A stretch of DNA of 64,000 nucleotides from an uncultured Alphaproteobacteria bacterium. Its GTDB lineage: Bacteria > Pseudomonadota > Alphaproteobacteria > Methylaequorales > Methylaequoraceae. Both the position numbers and the translations under genes were made by a program. The stretch spans positions 40,130 through 104,129 of the forward strand of contig CACEWP010000001.1 in the NCBI GenBank assembly GCA_902563305.1, read 5' to 3'. Position 1 is the stretch's first letter; each line of letters opens with the position of its first letter. Positions 27,335 through 44,157 of the stretch are shown here, piece after piece. Below the pieces are notes generated by a model that was given only the letters and a program-made list of their open reading frames with translations, had not been told where the DNA came from and did no database searches.

Positions 27335-28024
27335 CTAATCTTTATCAATAGAGTAGCCAGAGGACCTGATAGTCCTTATAAAGTTTTTTTTTCCTTCGAT
27401 ATTTAATGATTTTCTAAGCCTCCTTATGTGAGTGTCAACAGTTCTTCGTTCAACATAAATCCCGTGTCCCCAAACAGAATCTAGAAGTTGTTCTCTTGAA
27501 AATACTCTGCAAGGGTTTTCCATAAGATGCTTTAAAAGATTATATTCCGTGGGTCCAAGATGAACTCTCGTTTTTCCTCTGAATACTTTATGTTCATTAT
27601 CCAAAATTTTAATGTCTTCAAACTCTAATATGTTGTTTTGAGTAGAAGTTGATCTTCTAATAAGGGCTTTTATTCTTGCAATAAGTTCTGCAGGGCTAAA
27701 AGGTTTTGATATGTAATCATCCGCCCCATATTCCAAACCCCTTATTCTGTCTTCCTCTTCCTCTCTGGCAGTCAACATTATAATCGGTAAATTACTGGTT
27801 TCTTGTTTTCTTCGCAGAATTTTACAAAGCTCTAATCCATTTGGTTCAGGAATCATCCAATCAAATATAGCCAATGATGGAATTTCTTCTTTAATCAACA
27901 ATAGTGCTTCTTCACCGTTAGTGGCTGATTTTACCTGAAATCCGTTTTTTTCAATATTGTAGGTAATCATTGGTAGTAATGATTTATCATCCTCCACCAC
28001 AAGAATTGTTTTTTTAGTTTCCAT
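27335..28024 (-). CDS. phoB: Phosphate regulon response regulator PhoB
   Basis: VEDD, FDWMIP, MLTAR, GADDYISKPFS, LGPTEY and RTVDTHIRRLRK motifs; follows phoU. Confidence 0.96.
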   Translation of the reverse strand: METKKTILVVEDDKSLLPMITYNIEKNGFQVKSATNGEEALLLIKEEIPSLAIFDWMIPEPNGLELCKILRRKQETSNLPIIMLTAREEEEDRIRGLEYGADDYISKPFSPAELIARIKALIRRSTSTQNNILEFEDIKILDNEHKVFRGKTRVHLGPTEYNLLKHLMENPCRVFSREQLLDSVWGHGIYVERRTVDTHIRRLRKSLNIEGKKNFIRTIRSSGYSIDKD

Positions 28025-35425: not shown

Positions 35426-37515
35426 TTTTTTTTAAATTTTGATCCTCTGCCAGATAAAGATGGATTGTCTATAAAATACTTATGTGCAGAAAAACCAACT
35501 GATTTTGAAGCAATGCGTTCGTAAGACCCGTTAGATTTTAATTTCCAACTATTTTTTTTATCTTTTAAGTATGCAACCATTATTTGATTCAGAATTTGTT
35601 TTTGAACAGTTTCGTTGGCTATGGGAATAAAAGCTTCTACCCTTCTATCAAGATTTCTTGTCATAAGGTCAGCTGAAGAAATAAAAACGAAATTTTTTTC
35701 ATTTGGCATTTTATTCCCGTTGGCAAAACAAAAAATTCTGCTGTGCTCCAAAAACCTTCCTATAATACTTTTTACCTCAATATTCTCAGAAAAACCAGGA
35801 ATTCCTGGCCTTAGTCCGCATATACCTCTTACTATTAGTTTTATTTTAACTCCATTCTGTGAAGCAAAATATAATTGATCAATGATATTACTATCAATTA
35901 ATGAATTAACTTTGATCCATATTTGAGCAGGTAGATTCTTTTTTTTATTTGTAATTTCATTGTTGATAAGAGAGGTCAATTTTTCCCTTAGAAATTTTGG
36001 TGAATATGTCAACACATTCATTTTTTCTGGCTTTGTATAACCAGTTATAAAATTAAAAACTTTTAAAGCGTCATTTGCCAAATCTTTATTACATGAAAAA
36101 AAAGATAAATCAGTATAAGTTTTTGCAGTTATAGGGTGATAATTTCCAGTTCCAAAATGAACATACGACACAAGCTCATCACTTTCCTTTCTTGTTACAA
36201 CAGAAATCTTAGCGTGAGTTTTGAGATTTACAAATCCATATACGATGTGCACACCAGCTTTTTCTAAATCACGCGCCCATTTGATATTTTTCTCTTCATC
36301 AAAACGAGCTTTCAATTCCACTATTGCTGTTACTGACTTGCCATTATTAGAAGCATCAATTAAAGCTTTAATTATTGGCGAGTTTTTGCTCGTTCTATAA
36401 AGTGTTTGTTTAATCGATACAACAAAATCATCTATTGCTGCTTGTTCCAAAAAGTTTACAACAACATCAAAACTCTCAAAGGGATGGTGAACGATAATAT
36501 CCTTTTTCTTAATTGCTGAAAAACAACTCCCATTATAATCTATGATTCTTTGCGGAAATCTTGGCTTTATTTTTTTAAATTTAAGATCTTGATCGGCGTG
36601 CTCGACAATCTCATTTAGTGAATTAATATCCAAAAGTGAATTTACTCGAAAAATTCTTTCCTCACTAACTTTGAGCGATTTTTTAATAAAAGAAAGTAAT
36701 TTTTTTTCTACTCTTCCTTGAATATATAAACCAATAACTGTTCCTCTCCTTCTTTTTTTTAGAGCAGTTTCGAATGAGAGAATTAAATCCTCAGCCTCTT
36801 CTTCAAATTCAATATCACTGTCTCTGATAACTCTAATTAATGAAAAACTTTTTAGCTTAAAATCTGGAAAGATAATTTTGATGTTATTTTTTATAATATC
36901 CTCGGATTTAGCAAAATTATTGGGATTTGAAACTTTGAAAAATCTTTGGAGTTTTGGTGGAAAAATAACTAGAGAATAGGATAGCTTCCCTTTTTTATTT
37001 ATTAAAGCACACACCATTGTAATGCTTTGATTTGGAAGAAATGGAAATGGATGGGCACCATCAATTGCTAATGGTGTTAAAGAGGGCAGAATTGATTTTT
37101 TGAATACTTCAACTGTTTTTTTTTCTTCTTTTTTGAAATCTTTTGGTATTTCCAAAACTTTTATTTTTTTTTTACTTAATTCTTTTTTAAGGCTATTCCA
37201 AATATTTTGTTGTTTTTTTAAAAGTGACCTCAAAGATTTTGTAACGTCATTAAACTGTTGCCTAGTTGTTCTTCCGTCATCAGTTCTCATGGAAACTTTC
37301 TGTTTCATCAGTCGGTAAAGTCCTGCAACTCTTACCATATGAAATTCATCTAAATTATTTCCTGAAATTGATAGAAATCTTAGTCTCTCTATTAACAGAT
37401 TCCGAAGGTTTTCTGATTCGCTCAAAACTCTATCATTGAAACTCAACCAAGATAACTCTCTATTGATGAAACGCATCGGAGAATTTTGAATGTTTTTATT
37501 AAATTTTTTGTTCAT
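35422..37515 (-). CDS. ppk1: Polyphosphate kinase 1
   Basis: NRELSWL, NLDEF, HHPFESF, ELKARFDE, KTHAK, GTGNYH, FLEHSR and SADLMTRNLDRRVE motifs. Confidence 0.98.
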   Translation of the reverse strand: MNKKFNKNIQNSPMRFINRELSWLSFNDRVLSESENLRNLLIERLRFLSISGNNLDEFHMVRVAGLYRLMKQKVSMRTDDGRTTRQQFNDVTKSLRSLLKKQQNIWNSLKKELSKKKIKVLEIPKDFKKEEKKTVEVFKKSILPSLTPLAIDGAHPFPFLPNQSITMVCALINKKGKLSYSLVIFPPKLQRFFKVSNPNNFAKSEDIIKNNIKIIFPDFKLKSFSLIRVIRDSDIEFEEEAEDLILSFETALKKRRRGTVIGLYIQGRVEKKLLSFIKKSLKVSEERIFRVNSLLDINSLNEIVEHADQDLKFKKIKPRFPQRIIDYNGSCFSAIKKKDIIVHHPFESFDVVVNFLEQAAIDDFVVSIKQTLYRTSKNSPIIKALIDASNNGKSVTAIVELKARFDEEKNIKWARDLEKAGVHIVYGFVNLKTHAKISVVTRKESDELVSYVHFGTGNYHPITAKTYTDLSFFSCNKDLANDALKVFNFITGYTKPEKMNVLTYSPKFLREKLTSLINNEITNKKKNLPAQIWIKVNSLIDSNIIDQLYFASQNGVKIKLIVRGICGLRPGIPGFSENIEVKSIIGRFLEHSRIFCFANGNKMPNEKNFVFISSADLMTRNLDRRVEAFIPIANETVQKQILNQIMVAYLKDKKNSWKLKSNGSYERIASKSVGFSAHKYFIDNPSLSGRGSKFKKK

Positions 37516-38761
37516 TATAACTTTCCTGGAGGAAGGATGTTAAATACAAACAAAAAGCAATCATGATTGTTGATAATGCTAAGCTTAAAGTTAGCCCGCC
37601 AAATTGATAAGATAATCCAGATAAAAGGGTTCCGAAAAACCTTCCAGTAGCATTAGCCATATAGTAAAAGCCAACATCAAGAGAAACTCTGTTCATTTTT
37701 GAGAAATGCAAAATCAAATAAGAATGAATAGACGAATTTACAGCAAATATTCCACAAAAAATAAAAAGACCAGAAAATAAAAAAATTGTTGTCAGAAAAA
37801 TTTCACTGAAAAAAAATAGTAAAAAAGTTAATAAGATTAGATTAATTAGGAGGTAGAGAACCCAATTTTTTGAGATATCTACCAAGTTAATTTTTCTGTT
37901 GTCCTTCTTTAAGAATAATTTTGGTGAGTAAGCTTGAATTATTCCGTAGAGAATTATCCATGCGGCCATAAAGCTCCCAATTATAAAGAAGGCTTTTTTA
38001 TTCCCATCTACCGAACCATCCGAAAAAATACTGTAAAAAAAAATTGGCAATCCAACCACAAACCAAACATCACGTGCTCCAAATAAAAAAATTCTTGCTG
38101 CAGATAGAAAGTTAATGTTTTTAGATTTTGAAAATACATCGAATATTTTTGCTTTATTATTTTTATTTATAAGATCATCCTTTAAGAAAATAAAACTACA
38201 TACCAAAATAAAGGTAACAATAACAACCATTGAAATTAATGAATTATAAAAACCTATCGTTGCTAATAATGTACAGCCCAGCAAAAATCCGAAACCTTTT
38301 ACAGCATTTTTCGAACCTGTTAAGATTGCCACCCACTTAAAGAGGCTCGATTGATTATCTGGTGCTAAAAGTTTAACTGCTGATTTAGAGGACATCTTTG
38401 TTAAATCTTTTGCAATACCGCTTAATCCTTGGACGATTAAAACATAAAAAATCGAAAAGTTTTGACTCCAATTTTCATCCAATTGTGATAGAGAGTAAAG
38501 AGAAATTATTTGAACAGTCAAACCTGCATATAAAGTAAGCTTAAGACCGTATCGAGCGGCTAACCATCCAGCTGAAGGATTTGTAAAAATCCCAGCCAGT
38601 TCATAAAATAGAAATAAATATGCGAGTTGTAGTGGTGAAAAACCATTTTGATGAAAATGAAGTAAAACTAACATTCTCAGTGCCCCATCACTAAGCATAA
38701 ATACCCAATAAGCAAAGGTAACTATCAAATAAGAGAATTGTTCTTTAGACAATAAAATCAT
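37499..38761 (-). CDS. arsJ: Organoarsenical (1-arseno-3-phosphoglycerate) efflux MFS transporter ArsJ
   Basis: YW.F.LSDGALRMLV, GIAKDLTKMSSKSA, LTGSKNA.KG, FGARDVWFVVGLP and DVGFYYMANA motifs; directly after a GAPDH gene. Confidence 0.9.
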   Translation of the reverse strand: MILLSKEQFSYLIVTFAYWVFMLSDGALRMLVLLHFHQNGFSPLQLAYLFLFYELAGIFTNPSAGWLAARYGLKLTLYAGLTVQIISLYSLSQLDENWSQNFSIFYVLIVQGLSGIAKDLTKMSSKSAVKLLAPDNQSSLFKWVAILTGSKNAVKGFGFLLGCTLLATIGFYNSLISMVVIVTFILVCSFIFLKDDLINKNNKAKIFDVFSKSKNINFLSAARIFLFGARDVWFVVGLPIFFYSIFSDGSVDGNKKAFFIIGSFMAAWIILYGIIQAYSPKLFLKKDNRKINLVDISKNWVLYLLINLILLTFLLFFFSEIFLTTIFLFSGLFIFCGIFAVNSSIHSYLILHFSKMNRVSLDVGFYYMANATGRFFGTLLSGLSYQFGGLTLSLALSTIMIAFCLYLTSFLQESYNEQKI

Positions 38762-39756
38762 AGAGATTCACTTACAAATTCGCAAATATCAACCATTCTT
38801 TTTGCATAAGCGATTTCGTTGTCATACCATGCATAAACTTTCAGTTGCCTCTTGTTTATAACCATAGTAGAACACGCATCAATAATTGCTGACCTGGTAT
38901 CATTTACATAATCTGCTGATACAAGCTGAGCTTCCTCATAGCCTAAAATCCCTTTCAAATCATTCTCAGAGGCATCTTTAAAAAAGTTATTTACTTCTTC
39001 TTCAGAAGTATCTCGTTTTAATTCAAAAACACAATCCGTTAATGATGAATTTAAAAGTGGGACTCTGACAGCATGACCATTAAGTTTTCCTTCTAATTGA
39101 GGATAAATAAGAGATATTGCTTTCGCACTTCCTGTTGTTGTGGGAATCAAAGAATTTAAAGAGGACCTAGATCGTCTGATATCTTTTCCAGGTTTGTCGA
39201 CAATTGTCTGTGTGTTAGTTACGTTATGTATTGTTGTAATTGACCCATGTACTATGCCAATATTTTCGTGGAGTACTTTTACAACAGGTGCTAAACAGTT
39301 TGTTGTACAACTAGCAGCTGTAATTATTTTATGAGTATCGGGAATATATGTTTTATGGTTTATTCCAAATACTATATTTGCAACATTTTTTTCATTAATT
39401 GGTGCAGAGACAATTACTTTCTTAACACCATTATCAAAATAAGGGGCTAATTTTTTTTCTGATTTGAAGACTCCCGTGCAATCTAAAACAATATCTACAC
39501 CTTCTAGTTTTAAATTTTCAATTTTATTGTGATTATTAAAAATTAGTCTTCGATCATCAATTGAAATTATATTCTGGTCGGTAGAAAATTTGGCATTCCA
39601 CCGACCATGAACAGTGTCAAACTCCAACAAATGGCAATGTGTGTTTATAGTTCCAACTGCATCATTAATCCAAGCTAAATCTAAATTTTTTTCTAGAAGA
39701 AATTTGAGTACATATTTACCAATCCTTCCTATTCCATTAATTGCATACGTTGTCAT
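38758..39756 (-). CDS. gap: ArsJ-associated glyceraldehyde-3-phosphate dehydrogenase
   Basis: INGIGRIG, ASCTTNCLAP and WYDNE motifs; start adjusted to ATG 39756 (MTTYAING); ATGA overlap with arsJ. Confidence 0.92.
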   Translation of the reverse strand: MTTYAINGIGRIGKYVLKFLLEKNLDLAWINDAVGTINTHCHLLEFDTVHGRWNAKFSTDQNIISIDDRRLIFNNHNKIENLKLEGVDIVLDCTGVFKSEKKLAPYFDNGVKKVIVSAPINEKNVANIVFGINHKTYIPDTHKIITAASCTTNCLAPVVKVLHENIGIVHGSITTIHNVTNTQTIVDKPGKDIRRSRSSLNSLIPTTTGSAKAISLIYPQLEGKLNGHAVRVPLLNSSLTDCVFELKRDTSEEEVNNFFKDASENDLKGILGYEEAQLVSADYVNDTRSAIIDACSTMVINKRQLKVYAWYDNEIAYAKRMVDICEFVSESL

Positions 39757-39778
39757 GATGAACGAGTACTTTGGTAGT

Positions 39779-39796
39779 GTTACAGTTTTATGACAA
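39779..39796 (-). promoter_or_regulatory. Pho box upstream of gapdh-arsJ-ppk1-ppx
   Basis: Minus strand TTGTCAT-AAAA-CTGTAAC, close to consensus, 22 nt before the ATG. Confidence 0.88.
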
Positions 39797-39822
39797 AAGC
39801 TCCTAAATAGCCAAAAATACAC

Positions 39823-39859
39823 ATGTCATCTTACGTAAAAGTGTTACGTAAGGTGACAT
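39823..39859. terminator. Long inverted repeat; probable terminator of the Lys-rich gene (or an operator)
   Basis: ATGTCATCTTACGTAA-AAGTG-TTACGTAAGGTGACAT, 16-bp arms with one mismatch, 12 nt after the stop at 39872. Followed by GTGTATTTTT on the minus strand. Confidence 0.55.
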
Positions 39860-39871
39860 ATTATATTTTAT

Positions 39872-40489
39872 TTATTTTGTTGTCTCAGGTTTTTCTTCTG
39901 ATGAAGGAGAGGTGATATCCGTTTTTATGTTTATATTTTGAGTAGAAACTTTATCTAAGCTCCCATTTGATTTTGTTAAATCAATTTTTTTTGTTTTTGA
40001 CTTATTTTTGACAGTGGACTGAGAAGTTTTTGTAGTTTTTTTATCACTTTTTTTAAGTCGAGCTTTTAACTTTTTATTGTTACTTTTTAATTTTTTAATA
40101 ACTTTTTTAGGTTTATTAAGTTTAGATTCTAATTTCTTATTATCCTTTTTTAATTTACTAACGTTTTTATTAGGTTTCTTAAGTTTGGATTCTAACTTTT
40201 TATTAACCCTTTTTAATTTACTAACCTTTTTTTTAGGTTTTTTGAATTTAATTATTTTAGCTTTTAAATTTTTATTTTTCTTTTTTAAAACCTGAATTTC
40301 TTTTTTTTGATCAGATTTTTTTTTCGCACCTTCAATTGCTAAACACCCTAATTTTACAATTTTTGGTAGCTTTTTAGATTTACTCATTTTTTTAAGACTT
40401 AAACCTGTTAAGCGAGAAAATTTCTTATTAGAAATCTTATTTTTTTTCCCCCATCTTTTAAGCTGAGTTGGTTTTTTAAGTGGTTGCAT
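39872..40489 (-). CDS. Lysine-rich (histone-H1-like) protein with degenerate HTH-paralogue N-terminus and 21-aa repeats
   Basis: Strong RBS AAAGGAGG before ATG 40489; 70 Lys in 205 aa by hand count; N-terminus aligns by eye with the XRE protein at 41094. Confidence 0.75.
   Translation of the reverse strand: MQPLKKPTQLKRWGKKNKISNKKFSRLTGLSLKKMSKSKKLPKIVKLGCLAIEGAKKKSDQKKEIQVLKKKNKNLKAKIIKFKKPKKKVSKLKRVNKKLESKLKKPNKNVSKLKKDNKKLESKLNKPKKVIKKLKSNNKKLKARLKKSDKKTTKTSQSTVKNKSKTKKIDLTKSNGSLDKVSTQNINIKTDITSPSSEEKPETTK
40055..40243 (-). repeat. Three tandem 63-bp (21-aa) coding repeats
   Basis: KKPKKKVSKLKRVNKKLESKL / KKPNKNVSKLKKDNKKLESKL / NKPKKVIKKLKSNNKKLKARL; the similarity is also visible in the DNA. 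Confidence 0.85.
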
Positions 40490-40549
40490 TTTAATTCCTC
40501 CTTTTAACTTTACATTTATGCATTGCAATTCCTGGGAACAGCATATACA

Positions 40550-40577
40550 AATATACGCAATTATTGCATGTTGTCAA
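40550..40577 (-). promoter_or_regulatory. Sigma70-type promoter with palindromic operator in the spacer (for the Lys-rich gene)
   Basis: Minus strand TTGACA (40577-40572)-N16-TATATT (40555-40550); CGCAA-TTA-TTGCA at 40556-40568. Confidence 0.65.
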
Positions 40578-40886
40578 TTATTTAAAGCTTTTGTTGTTTG
40601 TTGTATTTTCTGTTAATTTTTGTTTAAGGGACTCTAAATCCTGATCTAACTTATAGTGTGACCAATCACTAAAAGACAAACAAACGGAATATTTCTTTTT
40701 TAAAATATTGTTATTTTCTTTTATGTTTGAAGCGCTTTTAAGTTGGCCGTTAATTATCTCAGACATAAACCTACAAGAATTCTGAGTATTATATGTTTCT
40801 GTGGTAGTTTTACTTACGTCTGTTACAAAGCCGTCAGAATCATAAAGAGGGCCAAAAAACGTTACAAAAACAATAACCCAAGTCAT
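40578..40886 (-). CDS. Hypothetical protein with short hydrophobic N-terminus and two Cys
   Basis: 102-aa ORF; its ATG overlaps the TGA of the upstream small ORF (ATGA). Confidence 0.6.
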   Translation of the reverse strand: MTWVIVFVTFFGPLYDSDGFVTDVSKTTTETYNTQNSCRFMSEIINGQLKSASNIKENNNILKKKYSVCLSFSDWSHYKLDQDLESLKQKLTENTTNNKSFK

Positions 40887-40957
40887 TTTCTTTTCGTTTG
40901 GTTGTCTAAGCTTCTTTTTTTAAAAACAAAGTCCCAATATAGCAAATGTCCATACAT
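40883..40957 (-). CDS. Unannotated 24-aa small ORF MYGHLLYWDFVFKKRSLDNQTKRK
   Basis: RBS AGGAG 7 nt upstream of ATG 40957; TGA at 40885-40883 overlaps the next ATG; lies just downstream of the TTGACA-N17-TATATT promoter. Confidence 0.6.
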   Translation of the reverse strand: MYGHLLYWDFVFKKRSLDNQTKRK

Positions 40958-40975
40958 ATATAATCTCCTAAGCAG

Positions 40976-41037
40976 TTATCCACACGCAACTATTGCGCGT
41001 TTATTATAAATATACGCACTGATTGCGCATATGTCAA
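40976..41037 (-). promoter_or_regulatory. Sigma70-type promoter with two palindromic operators and a perfect DnaA box
   Basis: Minus strand TTGACA (41037-41032)-N17-TATATT (41014-41009). CGCAC-TGA-TTGCG at 41015-41027 sits in the spacer, CGCAA-CTA-TTGCG at 40985-40997, and TTATCCACA at 40976-40984. Confidence 0.7.
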
Positions 41038-41093
41038 TATTATTTTGTAATAATTTTTTTTTTTTGGTATTAATACTTACTTTCTTAAAGTCT

Positions 41094-41297
41094 ATGGAAA
41101 AAGAACAGTTCAAAAAATGGAGAAAAAAGAATGGTTTTTCTCAAGCAGAGGCTGCTAATGTACTTGGCCTAAAAAGGAGAATGATCCAGTATTATGAGAA
41201 GGGTAAAAAAGGAGAAAAAGATATAAAAATACCCAAATATATAAAATTAGCATGTGAAGCGATAGAACTTAAGAAAAAGTTAAAGAAACTGGTTTAA
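41094..41297 (+). CDS. XRE/Cro-type helix-turn-helix regulator
   Basis: FKKWRKKNGFSQAEAANVLGLKRRMIQYYEKG is a classic HTH_3 pattern; start adjusted to ATG 41094. Confidence 0.88.
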   Translation: MEKEQFKKWRKKNGFSQAEAANVLGLKRRMIQYYEKGKKGEKDIKIPKYIKLACEAIELKKKLKKLV

Positions 41298-41316
41298 TTT
41301 TAAAAGGAGTAAACTT

Positions 41317-41862
41317 ATGAGCGATAATTTTGACATCAAAGTTGGTGAGTCACTAATTGCTGGAGGACCACCAGGAACAGCAGCTGAGCCGGAAGTAGTT
41401 ATCGGAAAATTTAACGGCCCATTTGGAACAGCTTTCGCCACCTTACTAGGCAATCAAGTTAAAGGACATACAAAAGTTCTTGCGATAATGAACACAGACG
41501 TAATGGTTAGGCCAGCAACATTAATGGTGAGCAAGGTCACTGTCAAAGACGACAGATATACCAATATTTTAATGGGAACAGTTCAAGGAGCTATTGCTAA
41601 TGGTGTGTTAGATTCCGTTAGAGAGGGTTATATTCCAAAGAAAATAGTTAATGATGTAGGCATTATTGTATCAGTTTGGTTGAATCCAAGTGTAGCTGAA
41701 GACAAAAATTTAGATCACAAAATACTTTTTGATATTCATCGTAAGGCGACCACGAGTGCAATAAAGAAAGCAATGAAGGACGAGCCATCGATAGATTGGC
41801 TTTTAGAAAACCAAGATAAAATTGTTCATAAATACTTTGAAAAAGCATTAGATTCCAAGTAA
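41317..41862 (+). CDS. fae: Formaldehyde-activating enzyme (Fae)-like protein
   Basis: KVGESLI, GHTKVLA, VRPATLMVSKVT, GTVQGAIANGVLDSVREG and EPSIDWLL match the Fae family; RBS AAAGGAG. The canonical AHID catalytic motif is absent. Confidence 0.8.
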   Translation: MSDNFDIKVGESLIAGGPPGTAAEPEVVIGKFNGPFGTAFATLLGNQVKGHTKVLAIMNTDVMVRPATLMVSKVTVKDDRYTNILMGTVQGAIANGVLDSVREGYIPKKIVNDVGIIVSVWLNPSVAEDKNLDHKILFDIHRKATTSAIKKAMKDEPSIDWLLENQDKIVHKYFEKALDSK

Positions 41863-41863
41863 C

Positions 41864-41953
41864 AGTGTATATGCACATAAGATAGATTTCTAATGGATTT
41901 TAGGCGTTCTTTTAAATTAACCTGCAATTTCACATAAATAGTGCATATACACT
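41864..41953. repeat. 90-bp intergenic element bounded by perfect 13-bp inverted repeats
   Basis: AGTGTATATGCAC (41864-41876) and GTGCATATACACT (41941-41953), between two convergent stop codons. Confidence 0.7.
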
Positions 41954-43346
41954 AAAAAAATCTCTTCAATATGGATACATAAGTAACAAACACAAAAACA
42001 AGTGAGCAAAGAACAGCTGCACTGCCTAAATCTTTGGCTCTTTTTGAAAGGTCGTGATGTGAAAAAGAAATTCTGTCAATGGTGGCTTCAATGCTTGAAT
42101 TAAGTAATTCAATTATGAGTAAAAGCATAATACTTCCAATCATGAGAAGTTTTTCTGTAGTCTCGGTTGGAAATATAAAAGCAAGAGGGATTAATATCAA
42201 AGTGAGAAGTAGTTCTTGTCTGAAAGCACTCTCCTCCTTAAAAGCAAATATAAATCCTGAGAGACTATTTATTAAAGCAAAATATAATCTCCTCAACCCA
42301 GTATTCTTTTTATGTGGATTCTCTTTAAAGACATATGTTTTTGGATCCCTTTTTTTTGAATTTTGTAGATTAGATTCAAAGATATTGACAACATTCTCCC
42401 AGGTGAATTTTTTTACATAATGTAAAGGTTTGTTGGCCGGTATTTTTAATGCATTTAAACACGCTATTTTAAGATTTTTATTTAGAACCCCTGCTCCACT
42501 TTTTCCAATAACATTGATTGGGCCTGCAACTGGAAATGCGGCTACTGGTAATCCGCATGCCATAGCTTCTAGTAATACTAGCCCGAAAGTATCGGTTTTG
42601 CTTGGAAAAACGAATAAATCTGCTTTTCCATAGTATTCATGTAATTCATGTTGTTTTTTTTCACCAAAAAATTTGACATTTGGATATTTTTTTTCGAGTT
42701 TGCGTCTATCAGGACCATCACCTACAATCCATTTTTCACAGTCGAGATCTAATTTTAAAAACGCTTCTAAGTTTTTTTCAATAGCAACTCTTCCTATGTT
42801 TATCAAAATAGGTTTGCCATTTTTCTTTTTTTGCAAAGGGGGTTTGAAAAGCTTAAAATCAACACCTCGTGGCCATATTGTAGTATTATGTATATTCCAC
42901 TTTTTTAAATCTTCTATTACTGATTTTGTAGGAACAAGTATTTTATGTGCTTTACTATGAAACCATTTTAGATAACCATAACCTATAAAAAGAGGAACTT
43001 TAGTTCTCTTATATATATATTCCGCAAATTTTGTATGAAATGAAGTTGTATAAACAAGTCCATTTTTTACCACATAATTTCTTCCTGCTAAACCTAGTGG
43101 ACCCTCAGTTGCAATATGAATCGCATCTGGATTGAATTCTTTAATTAACTTTTTAACTTTGTTCCCTGGAAAAAAAGATAACCGGATTTCAGGGTAAGTA
43201 GGACAAGGAAATGTTTTAAACAGATCAGGTGTTATCATTAAAACATTATGACCTTTTTTTTCTAAAAGTTCTTTTGTTTTAGATAACGTATGGACCACTC
43301 CATTAACTTGAGGGTGCCAGGCATCTGAGATAATTACTATTTTCAT
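41952..43346 (-). CDS. GT4 glycolipid glycosyltransferase (Agt-like) fused to diacylglycerol kinase DgkA
   Basis: N-terminal SDAWHPQVNGVV, HIATEGPLG and FPSKTDTFGLVLLEAMACG (GT4/Agt). C-terminal ESAFRQE, ELLNSSIEATIDR and AKDLGSAAV (DgkA). Start adjusted to ATG 43346. Confidence 0.9.
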   Translation of the reverse strand: MKIVIISDAWHPQVNGVVHTLSKTKELLEKKGHNVLMITPDLFKTFPCPTYPEIRLSFFPGNKVKKLIKEFNPDAIHIATEGPLGLAGRNYVVKNGLVYTTSFHTKFAEYIYKRTKVPLFIGYGYLKWFHSKAHKILVPTKSVIEDLKKWNIHNTTIWPRGVDFKLFKPPLQKKKNGKPILINIGRVAIEKNLEAFLKLDLDCEKWIVGDGPDRRKLEKKYPNVKFFGEKKQHELHEYYGKADLFVFPSKTDTFGLVLLEAMACGLPVAAFPVAGPINVIGKSGAGVLNKNLKIACLNALKIPANKPLHYVKKFTWENVVNIFESNLQNSKKRDPKTYVFKENPHKKNTGLRRLYFALINSLSGFIFAFKEESAFRQELLLTLILIPLAFIFPTETTEKLLMIGSIMLLLIIELLNSSIEATIDRISFSHHDLSKRAKDLGSAAVLCSLVFVFVTYVSILKRFF

Positions 43347-43356
43347 AACTAGGAAA

Positions 43357-44157
43357 TTAAGTTTTTTGTGGGAGCTGAAAGTGACTTGAATGCTCTTGAG
43401 AAATTCTAGATGACCAGTCAACAATCTCTAGATTACCATCGATATGTTCTACAATTGCGGTCATAGACTCTACCCAATCACCGCTATTACAATATATTAT
43501 ATCATGAATTGATTTGAATTCTGCTTTGTGTATATGCCCACAAACAACACCATCAAACCCTCTTCTTTTTGCCTCCTTAGTCATTACTAATTCATAGGCA
43601 GTAATAAATGAAACAGCTTTTTTTACCTTTTGTTTAATAAACTTTGATAATGACCAGTAAGGTAGCTTTAAAAATTGTCTAATATTATTAAATAGATTGT
43701 TTAAGCGGATTAACATAGCATAACACTTGTCACCAACATATGCGAGCCAACGAGCATGTCTAATAACGCTATCAAATTGATCTCCATGAATGATCCATAA
43801 TTTCTTACCCTTGAGAGTGGTATGGTGAGCTTCCTTTTCAATTATTATATCTCCGAAATTCACACCAATATATTTACGCGCAGCTTCATCATGGTTACCT
43901 GGTATAAATACAACTTTTACTCCTTTCCTAGCTTTTCTTAGTAATTTTTGGATAACATCATTGTGAGCTTGTGGCCAATACCATTTTTTCTTCAATCGCC
44001 ATCCATCGATAATGTCTCCTACAAGAAAAATTTTTTCGGACTTTGAAACTTTAAGAAACTCTAAAAGAAGTTCTGCTTTGCAACCGCTTGTACCTAGATG
44101 AACATCTGAAATCCATATTGTTCTGTAACGATTATGTTTAAAGGATACGCCATCCAT
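43357..44157 (-). CDS. plcP: Phospholipase C PlcP (LpxH-like metallophosphoesterase) for lipid remodelling
   Basis: SDVHLG, GDIIDGW, GNHD, HGDQFD, CGHIH and NSGDWVES motifs; next to an Agt-like gene and under a Pho box. Confidence 0.85.
   Translation of the reverse strand: MDGVSFKHNRYRTIWISDVHLGTSGCKAELLLEFLKVSKSEKIFLVGDIIDGWRLKKKWYWPQAHNDVIQKLLRKARKGVKVVFIPGNHDEAARKYIGVNFGDIIIEKEAHHTTLKGKKLWIIHGDQFDSVIRHARWLAYVGDKCYAMLIRLNNLFNNIRQFLKLPYWSLSKFIKQKVKKAVSFITAYELVMTKEAKRRGFDGVVCGHIHKAEFKSIHDIIYCNSGDWVESMTAIVEHIDGNLEIVDWSSRISQEHSSHFQLPQKT

Follow-up and report, generated by a model that had tools for sequence, protein, structure and literature searches.

A candidate XRE repressor switch in the variable phosphate island of TMED127/Methylaequorales

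Introduction

Small repressors of the XRE/Cro-C1 type, among them those of phage immunity switches, restriction-modification C-proteins such as C.BclI, and Aca1, share a design in which a protein of ~70 amino acids (aa) that consists of a helix-turn-helix (HTH) domain only is associated with repeated palindromes placed over strong promoters, in an autoregulatory geometry. A locus of the same design was found at positions 39823 to 41953 of a 64,000-nucleotide stretch of DNA from an uncultured Alphaproteobacteria bacterium of the family Methylaequoraceae (GenBank assembly GCA_902563305.1, contig CACEWP010000001.1, positions 40,130 to 104,129 of the forward strand), which is referred to as the window and to which all positions refer. 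However, the XRE-family regulator in this locus is chromosomal, is not accompanied by phage, restriction-modification or anti-CRISPR partner genes, and belongs to a separate alphaproteobacterial subfamily. The XRE gene and three genes on the opposite strand, which encode a 24-aa peptide, a 102-aa orphan protein (orf102) and a lysine-rich 205-aa protein, are here called the module, and a gene for a Fae-family protein (Fae-like) follows the XRE gene. On balance, we consider it probable that the module is a chromosomal repressor switch. The Pho island of TMED127/Methylaequorales is variable, and the module forms part of its phosphate-scarcity version.

Among the methanol oxidisers of the oligotrophic surface ocean, TMED127 has been described as the group with the highest transcriptional activity (PMC12542740). 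The text of that survey (Glass et al. 2025, PMC12542740) reports two hypothetical genes, AG-892-F10.CDS.256 and CDS.257, with homologues only in TMED127, one of them encoding a protein of '34% lysine'. Both exceeded 10^4 transcripts per million (TPM) at the Bermuda Atlantic Time-series Study (BATS) site in phosphorus-poor Sargasso surface water, placing them in the same class as pstS and proteorhodopsin (PMC12542740).

An earlier note, made from the letters of the window alone, had read the region as five genes in two divergent units with a palindromic operator in three copies and two consensus-like promoters, with inverted repeats at both ends and neither a Pho box of its own nor a mobility gene. 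It had proposed a self-regulated switch in which the XRE protein represses a very basic polyanion-binding protein, with the Fae-like protein and a conserved Cys as possible sensory inputs and nucleoid compaction or polyphosphate-granule organization as candidate outputs. The open reading frame (ORF) listing and cross-genus alignment confirmed all five genes.

The XRE regulator and its operators

The XRE protein scores 33.4 bits (E = 4.6e-8) with the Pfam family HTH_3 (PF01381), above the gathering threshold of 23, and the cross-genus alignment places its start at the conserved ATG at 41094, not at 41031. Relatives were found in numbers, 341 in species-representative genomes and 397 protein clusters at E <= 1e-8, with ~60% identity to those of Parvularculaceae, Hyphomicrobiales and others, and the sources name this subfamily only as 'helix-turn-helix transcriptional regulator'.

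The operator is a 15-bp palindrome, ACGCAA-N3-TTGCGY. The sequence ACGCANNNATTGC is present in the window in three copies (O1 to O3, Table 1) where 0.01 would be expected, which bears out the shared operator of the earlier note. A search of the whole 1.34-Mb genome with the looser pattern ACGCAMNNNTTGC returned five matches, three of them in the module and two within ORFs, and a control pattern returned two. In 12 of 16 module loci, which belong to genera designated g1, g9 and g13, O1, O2 and O3 stood at conserved distances from the XRE ATG (-538 to -549, -109 to -115 and -79 to -84, respectively), and the half-sites were constant and the central bases variable across these loci.

The association of regulator and palindrome was also found outside the family. 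The 220 nt upstream of 62 XRE homologues from other families were compared with 2313 control windows, and at least one [CT]GCA-N5-TGC[GA] site was identified at 46 of the 62 loci but in only 73 of the controls (3.2%). At least two such sites were present at 13 loci and in none of the controls, and the spacing between sites at the homologue loci was 30-32 nt in 19 of 29 cases. The co-inheritance of regulator and palindrome across the Alphaproteobacteria is the main support for an interaction between the two, and the prediction that the XRE protein binds the 15-bp palindromes is well supported by these sequence comparisons. At 5 of 18 distant XRE-homologue loci the palindrome was embedded in a divergent promoter of the form TTGACA + operator + (C/T)ATATT, and a simple motif test of 18 loci revealed no conserved divergent small ORF upstream of the distant homologues.

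In other Alphaproteobacteria, members of the subfamily (~70-90 aa; loci L050-L112) carry up to three GCGCAC-N3-GTGCGC palindromes 30-32 nt apart, and the neighbouring genes are housekeeping genes, namely nrdJ, carB, an NDUFA12-like gene, sspB and thyA. These loci reveal that the XRE subfamily, so far unnamed, is widespread in Alphaproteobacteria and has a stereotyped operator array with up to three copies. The Cys that the earlier note had put forward as a possible sensory input sits in an 'LAC' helix that is common to this whole subfamily and to the protein of Protein Data Bank (PDB) entry 2AUW, thus it is not a feature specific to the module and that suggestion is not supported.

Promoters, transcription units and terminal repeats

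The two consensus-like promoters were found again, each with a score of 11/12 (P(-) and P_H, Table 1), although promoter-like sites in the region overall are at chance level (11 against 10.5 +/- 3.9). As both are on the minus strand, they do not diverge from each other, and because they are separate the region has three transcription units instead of two. The divergence between XRE/Fae-like and the minus-strand genes stands, whereas the count of two units does not. Regular-expression searches showed that P_H together with its operator is kept in 11 of the 15 loci that have this DNA, and P(-) in 13 of 16 loci.

O2 is located just downstream of the inferred P(-) start and within the spacer of a candidate promoter for the XRE gene. 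This candidate would oppose P(-), with the -10 elements of the two abutting. Face-to-face promoters are known from coliphage 186, which provides a comparison for such an arrangement. The sequence TTATCCACACGCAA, which flanks the candidate XRE promoter, was invariant in four genera when the alignment was read by eye. The 9-mer TTATCCACA (40975-40983), which adjoins O2, is likewise invariant in four genera; it equals the DnaA-box consensus, but could alternatively represent the -35 element of the XRE promoter.

Inverted repeats are present at both ends of the region, but the left one is a terminator and not an element boundary, and the right one is weak. The left hairpin has predicted folding energies of -22.6 and -22.2 kcal/mol (z = -6.0 and -6.8), and hairpins that are unrelated in sequence occupy the same position in genera g1, g9 and g13, which identifies it as the terminator of the lysine-rich gene rather than the end of an element. 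It is predicted to insulate the module from the Pho-box promoter of gapdh. Long-range inverted repeats of the AGTGTATATGCAC / GTGCATATACACT type were seen 3' of the Fae-like gene in g1, g9 and g11 (window 41864-41953; loci L025 and L023), and the same comparison did not reveal them in g13.

Table 1. Positions of genes, putative regulatory sites and repeats in the window
Feature	Position	Strand	Description
Lysine-rich HTH paralogue ('H1-like')	39872-40489	-	205 aa; ATG at 40489 after AAGGAGG
orf102	40578-40886	-	102-aa orphan; ORF listing and alignments
Peptide gene	40883-40957	-	24 aa, MYGHLLYWDFVFKKRSLDNQTKRK; preceded by AGGAG
XRE-family gene	41094-41297	+	67 aa, HTH domain only; ORF listing and cross-genus alignment
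Fae-like gene	41317-41862	+	begins 19 nt past XRE
Operator O1	40555-40569		within spacer of P_H
Operators O2, O3	40984-40998, 41014-41028		30 bp centre to centre
Putative promoter P_H	40550-40577	-	TTGACA-N16-TATATT, 11/12; upstream of lysine-rich gene
Putative promoter P(-)	41009-41037	-	TTGACA-N17-TATATT, 11/12; O3 in spacer; serves peptide and orf102
Candidate XRE promoter	40979-41007	+	TCCACA-N17-TATTAT, 9/12; O2 in spacer
Left inverted repeat (hairpin)	39823-39859	-	terminator-like on both strands (terminator scan)
Right inverted repeat	41864-41876, 41941-41953 (arms)		13-nt arms; weaker, z = -2.7 and -1.3
Pho island up to module	phoB at 27335-28024		phoB, phoU, pstBACS, SixA-like phosphatase, ppx, ppk, major facilitator superfamily (MFS) gene (ArsJ-like), gapdh, module
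Pho island after module			Fae-family gene, GT4-diacylglycerol-kinase fusion, metallophosphoesterase, phosphate-selective porin

The peptide, orf102 and the lysine-rich protein

The stop codon of the peptide gene overlaps the ATG of orf102 (ATGA), thus the two are probably translationally coupled. At 14 of 16 module loci, both the motif and the stop/start overlap recur in an ORF of 23-25 codons, and the second positions of its codons change least between genera.

Alignments of orf102 revealed seven invariant residues (G12, P13, C38, N46, G47, K64 and C69). No family was assigned to it in Pfam, NCBIfam, PADLOC or PHROG, and a profile search returned eight matches among 1.8 billion representatives. 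An AlphaFold2 (AF2) model reached a predicted local distance difference test score (pLDDT) of 63.6, Foldseek found no PDB match to it at E <= 0.001, and in the ESM Atlas the only matches, at 0.86, were to viral hypothetical clusters.

The lysine-rich protein contains 34% Lys and has a net charge of +61 and a pI of 10.7. Its polycationic region includes three 21-aa repeats, encoded by a 63-nt repeat present in 3.0 copies, and the cross-genus alignment shows an invariant C-terminal motif, NGSLDKVS.QNINIKTDIT.P. In the AF2 model three short helices are followed by one helix spanning residues 43-155 and a disordered tail, with pLDDT values of 76-94 over residues 61-150. The protein is represented by only 11 clusters among 5.8 billion proteins, and these belong to no Pfam family except for two apparent chimeras. 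Homology to the H1 or AlgP families was not detected in Pfam or NCBIfam, where only sub-threshold coiled-coil matches were obtained. On these searches, orf102 and the lysine-rich protein are lineage-restricted.

The head of the lysine-rich protein (approximately residues 1-55) was found to be a degenerate paralogue of the XRE protein (BLASTP E = 0.008; hhalign 91.5% probability, E = 8.7e-7), which bears out the pair of paralogous HTH proteins recognized in the earlier note. The two alignments demonstrate, at the level of sequence, that the lysine-rich protein evolved from a duplicated XRE gene. A modelled complex of the XRE protein with the lysine-rich head scored 0.16, against a mark of 0.32.

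Four metagenome clusters resemble chimeras of the module genes. P0007 unites the head and tail of the lysine-rich protein with the XRE C-terminus, in P0010 and P0011 this tail is fused to unrelated N-termini, and P0018 joins the Fae-like N-terminus to the orf102 C-terminus. These clusters may be assembly artefacts or natural recombinants between paralogues.

Scans of the module proteins against PADLOC and PHROGs gave generic HTH and coiled-coil matches only. These results bear on the possibility that the module is a toxin-antitoxin- or abortive-infection-like unit, in which the XRE protein would be an antitoxin-type repressor of a harmful peptide or polycation. Such a unit would fit the strong promoters tightly overlaid by operators and the small, aromatic and cationic peptide, and the HTH domain resembles antitoxins of the MqsA/HigA/Y4mF type. 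However, this resemblance misses the family cut-offs (25.1 against 61.8 bits for TIGR03830 and 19.6 against 71.65 for TIGR03070), and neither the peptide nor orf102 nor the lysine-rich protein matched a known toxin or defence family in Pfam, NCBIfam, PADLOC or PHROGs. The cargo is also divergent from the XRE gene and does not form a two-gene operon with it, and more than 10^4 TPM in healthy natural populations (PMC12542740) is hard to reconcile with a harmful product. We regard this explanation as very unlikely.

Published transcript levels

The reference genome of the published survey, single amplified genome AG-892-F10 (PMC12542740), is among the relatives studied here (L033). The orthologue of the lysine-rich protein in this genome contains 34.1% Lys, and of the 2266 ORFs with 60 aa or more in the genome of the window, the lysine-rich gene alone reaches 30% Lys. 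By a crude gene count, orf102 and the lysine-rich gene are at ordinals between 247/248 and 260/261 on the L033 contig. On the basis of the Lys content, its uniqueness and the position in the contig, CDS.256 and CDS.257 were taken to be orf102 and the lysine-rich gene, and this identification is very likely to be correct. The published pair and the module pair are alike in being adjacent, in including one protein of 34% Lys, in having homologues only in TMED127 and in their fitting contig position (PMC12542740).

The text of PMC12542740 treats CDS.256 and CDS.257 as highly transcribed hypotheticals, with no reference to the XRE gene or its operators, to the peptide and the paralogy, or to the Pho island. 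The cargo is thus already in print as unnamed hypotheticals, and no account of the circuit, of the peptide and the paralogy, or of the surrounding island was found in the literature searched. What is added here is that two top transcripts of unassigned function are placed in a phosphate-scarcity island, with a testable control circuit consisting of one repressor, three operators and two consensus promoters.

Since the organism is a methylotroph that depends on lanthanides and the orphans rank with its top transcripts (PMC12542740), a role in lanthanide scavenging or storage might also be envisaged. However, the genes are located in the Pho island, ~186 kb from the tetrahydromethanopterin (H4MPT) cluster on the same contig, and their transcripts have no diel rhythm, unlike those of xoxF5 (PMC12542740). 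A polycation with a charge of +61 is also unsuited to binding the lanthanide ion Ln3+, and orf102 lacks a charged signal-peptide n-region, its N-terminus forming a buried strand in the model. A lanthanide function is the least probable of the alternatives and can be given very little credence.

Distribution of the module in the family

The family survey covered 42 genomes from 14 genera, of which 37 were searched for the Fae-like gene. The XRE gene was full length in 17 of the 42 genomes, partial in two more and present as a 3' remnant in three, and orf102 was found in 16. The lysine-rich gene was full length in 12 genomes, cut by contig ends in three and truncated in two. In answer to whether the genes co-occur elsewhere, a neighbourhood check found XRE, orf102 and the lysine-rich gene adjacent in 12 genomes, from genera g1, g9 and g13, and two further loci end inside the module. 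Across three to four genera the module is found in one syntenic slot, with conserved protein sequences. Genus g2 differs in that its XRE-peptide-orf102 unit lies in inverted orientation downstream of the Fae-like gene, and the lysine-rich gene is missing.

Two g10 genomes (L115/G024 and L116/G032) carry truncated copies of the module elsewhere, beside a tRNA gene, in which the C-terminal half of the lysine-rich gene abuts the XRE gene. Neither orf102 nor the operators are present in these copies, and the XRE protein is 95% identical to that of the window, which together with the truncation points to recent lateral transfer followed by decay. In genome G028 (L019, 3931-4141), a single deletion has joined the 3' part of the gene for the SixA-like phosphatase to the 3' part of the XRE gene, with the loss of the module and of ppx, ppk, the MFS gene and gapdh. 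The event explains the XRE remnant found before the Fae-like gene, and the junction offers a direct view of the long version of the island turning into the short one. The flexible phosphate islands described for HIMB59 (PMC10734472) are comparable with the variable island here by analogy only. Placing the lineage in SAR11 or HIMB59 was rejected, since the family possesses the full H4MPT pathway, a paper on HIMB59 (PMC10308909) contains no match for methanopterin, methanol or xoxF, and relative L033 is the TMED127 single amplified genome of PMC12542740.

The g10 copies and the patchy distribution within genera would also be expected if the module were what is left of a decaying immunity switch from a mobile element or prophage, without a host function, and the XRE protein has weak, sub-threshold matches to phage repressor families (RstR and PHROG regulators). 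However, no relative of the XRE protein was found in 50,697 phage records or 72,556 plasmid records. As the earlier note had it, no mobility gene was detected in the region, and the ORF listing and Pfam scan included no integrase. The GC content of the module (0.298) is like that of its flanks (0.304), and the shared syntenic slot, the conserved proteins and the very high published transcript levels (PMC12542740) likewise argue against decay. A remnant of this kind is judged to be quite unlikely.

The Fae-like gene

The product of the Fae-like gene belongs to the Pfam family Fae (formaldehyde-activating enzyme, PF08714; 6.7e-59, 198.9 bits against 27) and exceeds the cut-off of TIGR03126 (134 against 118.05 bits). 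It matched PDB entry 1Y5Y with 2.8e-18, compared with 5.9e-80 for the Fae encoded in the H4MPT cluster. The latter, the canonical Fae (L118:5470-5979), is encoded beside mch, mtdB-like and fhcD genes, and the Fae-like protein shares 33% identity with it. The H4MPT pathway is common in the family, with Mch and Ftr each found in 30 of 42 genomes.

The Fae-like gene was found in 28 of the 37 genomes searched, and in all eight module-less loci with visible flanks it is directly beside pstS, across the Pho boxes. From this core distribution, the placement beside pstS and the decoupling in g2, the Fae-like gene is a core paralogue that neighbours the module without belonging to it. The earlier suggestion that it is a sensory part of the system is therefore not supported. 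In loci L019-L022, L024 and L029-L031, the gene is inserted between the phosphate-selective porin gene and pstS with its Pho boxes. From this position, a Fae-family protein may have a function connected with phosphate in a methylotroph that also has canonical Fae. In PMC3160333, on C1 metabolism in SAR11, Fae-type enzymes were found only in the reference list.

The arrangement of the XRE and Fae-like genes has to be considered in relation to a formaldehyde or C1-stress operon, in which the XRE protein would mainly regulate the Fae-like gene and the minus-strand genes would be accessory. The two genes run in the same direction on the plus strand, separated by 19 nt that contain no terminator, the XRE-Fae-like order was seen in 10 of 20 loci fetched around Fae-like genes, and in three genomes a 3' XRE remnant is directly upstream of the Fae-like gene. 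However, the Fae-like gene stands by pstS without XRE in the eight module-less loci, and in g2 the XRE gene lies in an inverted unit downstream of it. The operators lie in the promoter spacers of the minus-strand genes, and the XRE homologues elsewhere had no Fae neighbour in the loci inspected. A Fae regulon is thus unlikely, and it, like the other alternatives considered above, fits less well than a repressor switch controlling the minus-strand genes.

The phosphate island around the module

The genome from which the window derives is 1.34 Mb with 30% GC, and Pfam annotation places the region within a Pho island (Table 1). The Pho-box pattern TGTMAYN5TGTMAY was found four times in the 64-kb window, where 0.12 sites would be expected, at pstS (two overlapping sites), gapdh and the porin gene. 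In agreement with the earlier note, the same scan found no site within 39823-41953. The nearest Pho box (39779-39795) is 28 nt to the left of the module and serves the gapdh operon.

This operon, comprising gapdh and an MFS transporter gene (37499-39822), has its Pho box only ~22 nt from the gapdh ATG, and the short distance suggests an mRNA that is leaderless or has a very short leader. The pair resembles the glyceraldehyde-3-phosphate dehydrogenase (GAPDH)/ArsJ arsenate-detoxification couple. On the other side, the gene for the GT4 glycosyltransferase-diacylglycerol kinase fusion overlaps the metallophosphoesterase gene (window 41952-44157), and we take these two to resemble a lipid-remodelling pair of the PlcP/Agt type for phosphorus sparing. 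An Rfam scan returned nothing relevant, the sole match being a chance miRNA (E = 0.99).

Proposed mechanism

In the repressor switch favoured here, the 67-aa XRE protein would bind O1, O2 and O3. As O3 and O1 are in promoter spacers and O2 is just past one start, the bound protein should silence two units, (i) the peptide and orf102 and (ii) the polycationic protein of 205 aa. The XRE protein should also limit its own synthesis, given that O2 and O3 overlap the candidate promoter of its gene. On derepression, both units would fire very strongly, and in phosphorus-poor surface water the cargo would be strongly on. The published transcript level alongside pstS (PMC12542740) also fits an output made at phosphorus scarcity. 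Of the self-regulated switch in the earlier note, a self-contained XRE-operator circuit with O1 in the promoter of the basic protein is retained as the probable arrangement, and the Fae-like protein is no longer part of it. One highly transcribed gene would in this case descend from the gene of its own repressor.

Several points weigh against the switch as proposed. Repression by the XRE protein is deduced wholly from sequence, the protein has an HTH domain only and no sensor domain, and the promoter of its gene is uncertain, as the best candidate scores 9/12. If CDS.256 and CDS.257 are the module genes, they are strongly on in situ, so repression was not in force there and the XRE protein could be only a modulator (PMC12542740). 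The lysine-rich gene is not obligatory, since g2 keeps the XRE gene, the peptide and orf102 without it. It is also doubtful whether the head of the lysine-rich protein binds DNA sequence-specifically, as hhalign shows nine residues to be missing around the recognition helix, at the point where that of the XRE protein ends. Finally, ppk was found in all 14 genomes with the lysine-rich gene and in 6 of 28 others, but the two genes are physically linked and share ancestry, which confounds this association and makes it weak evidence.

With low confidence, the lysine-rich protein may be an abundant structural binder of a polyanion (DNA, polyphosphate or RNA) that is made at phosphorus scarcity. A more elaborate and unlikely possibility is that it is a new polyanion scaffold, a ~110-residue polycationic helix with a head derived from duplication of the repressor, that would organize polyphosphate and/or the nucleoid in phosphorus-starved cells of the lanthanide-dependent methylotroph that dominates in the ocean. 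The overlapping opposed promoters would then form a bistable switch, and the very basic XRE protein would be titrated off its operators by polyphosphate as it accumulates, or by its paralogue. If true, this would link polyphosphate storage, nucleoid state and phosphorus limitation in a streamlined marine bacterium.

Comparison with known systems

Among solved structures, the best match to the XRE profile was NE0471 of Nitrosomonas europaea (PDB 2AUW; E = 1.6e-6), and an 'IP..I.LAC' helix is found in both. However, NE0471 is a two-domain protein of 170 aa with no assigned function, and only its C-terminal HTH part aligns to the XRE protein.

The lysine-rich protein may be compared with AlgP of Pseudomonas aeruginosa, an H1-like protein described as spacing polyphosphate granules, which is also very basic, lysine-rich and repeat-bearing (PMC9239181). 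With respect to the connection of AlgP with polyphosphate, the lysine-rich gene is located three genes away from ppk and ppx. The repeats of AlgP are Ala/Pro-rich units, whereas the protein encoded in the module, with no detected homology to AlgP, has 21-aa units of K, L, N and S that are modelled as one long helix, and a head derived from an XRE protein.

The Fae-like gene resembles those for Fae2 and Fae3, distant paralogues of the formaldehyde-activating enzyme in methylotrophs, as a second, divergent Fae-family gene is present alongside canonical Fae and a complete H4MPT pathway (PMC5023235). Single and double mutants in fae2 and fae3 showed wild-type growth on methanol and on methylamine (PMC5023235). 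The paralogue described here differs in its location between pstS and the gene for the phosphate porin.

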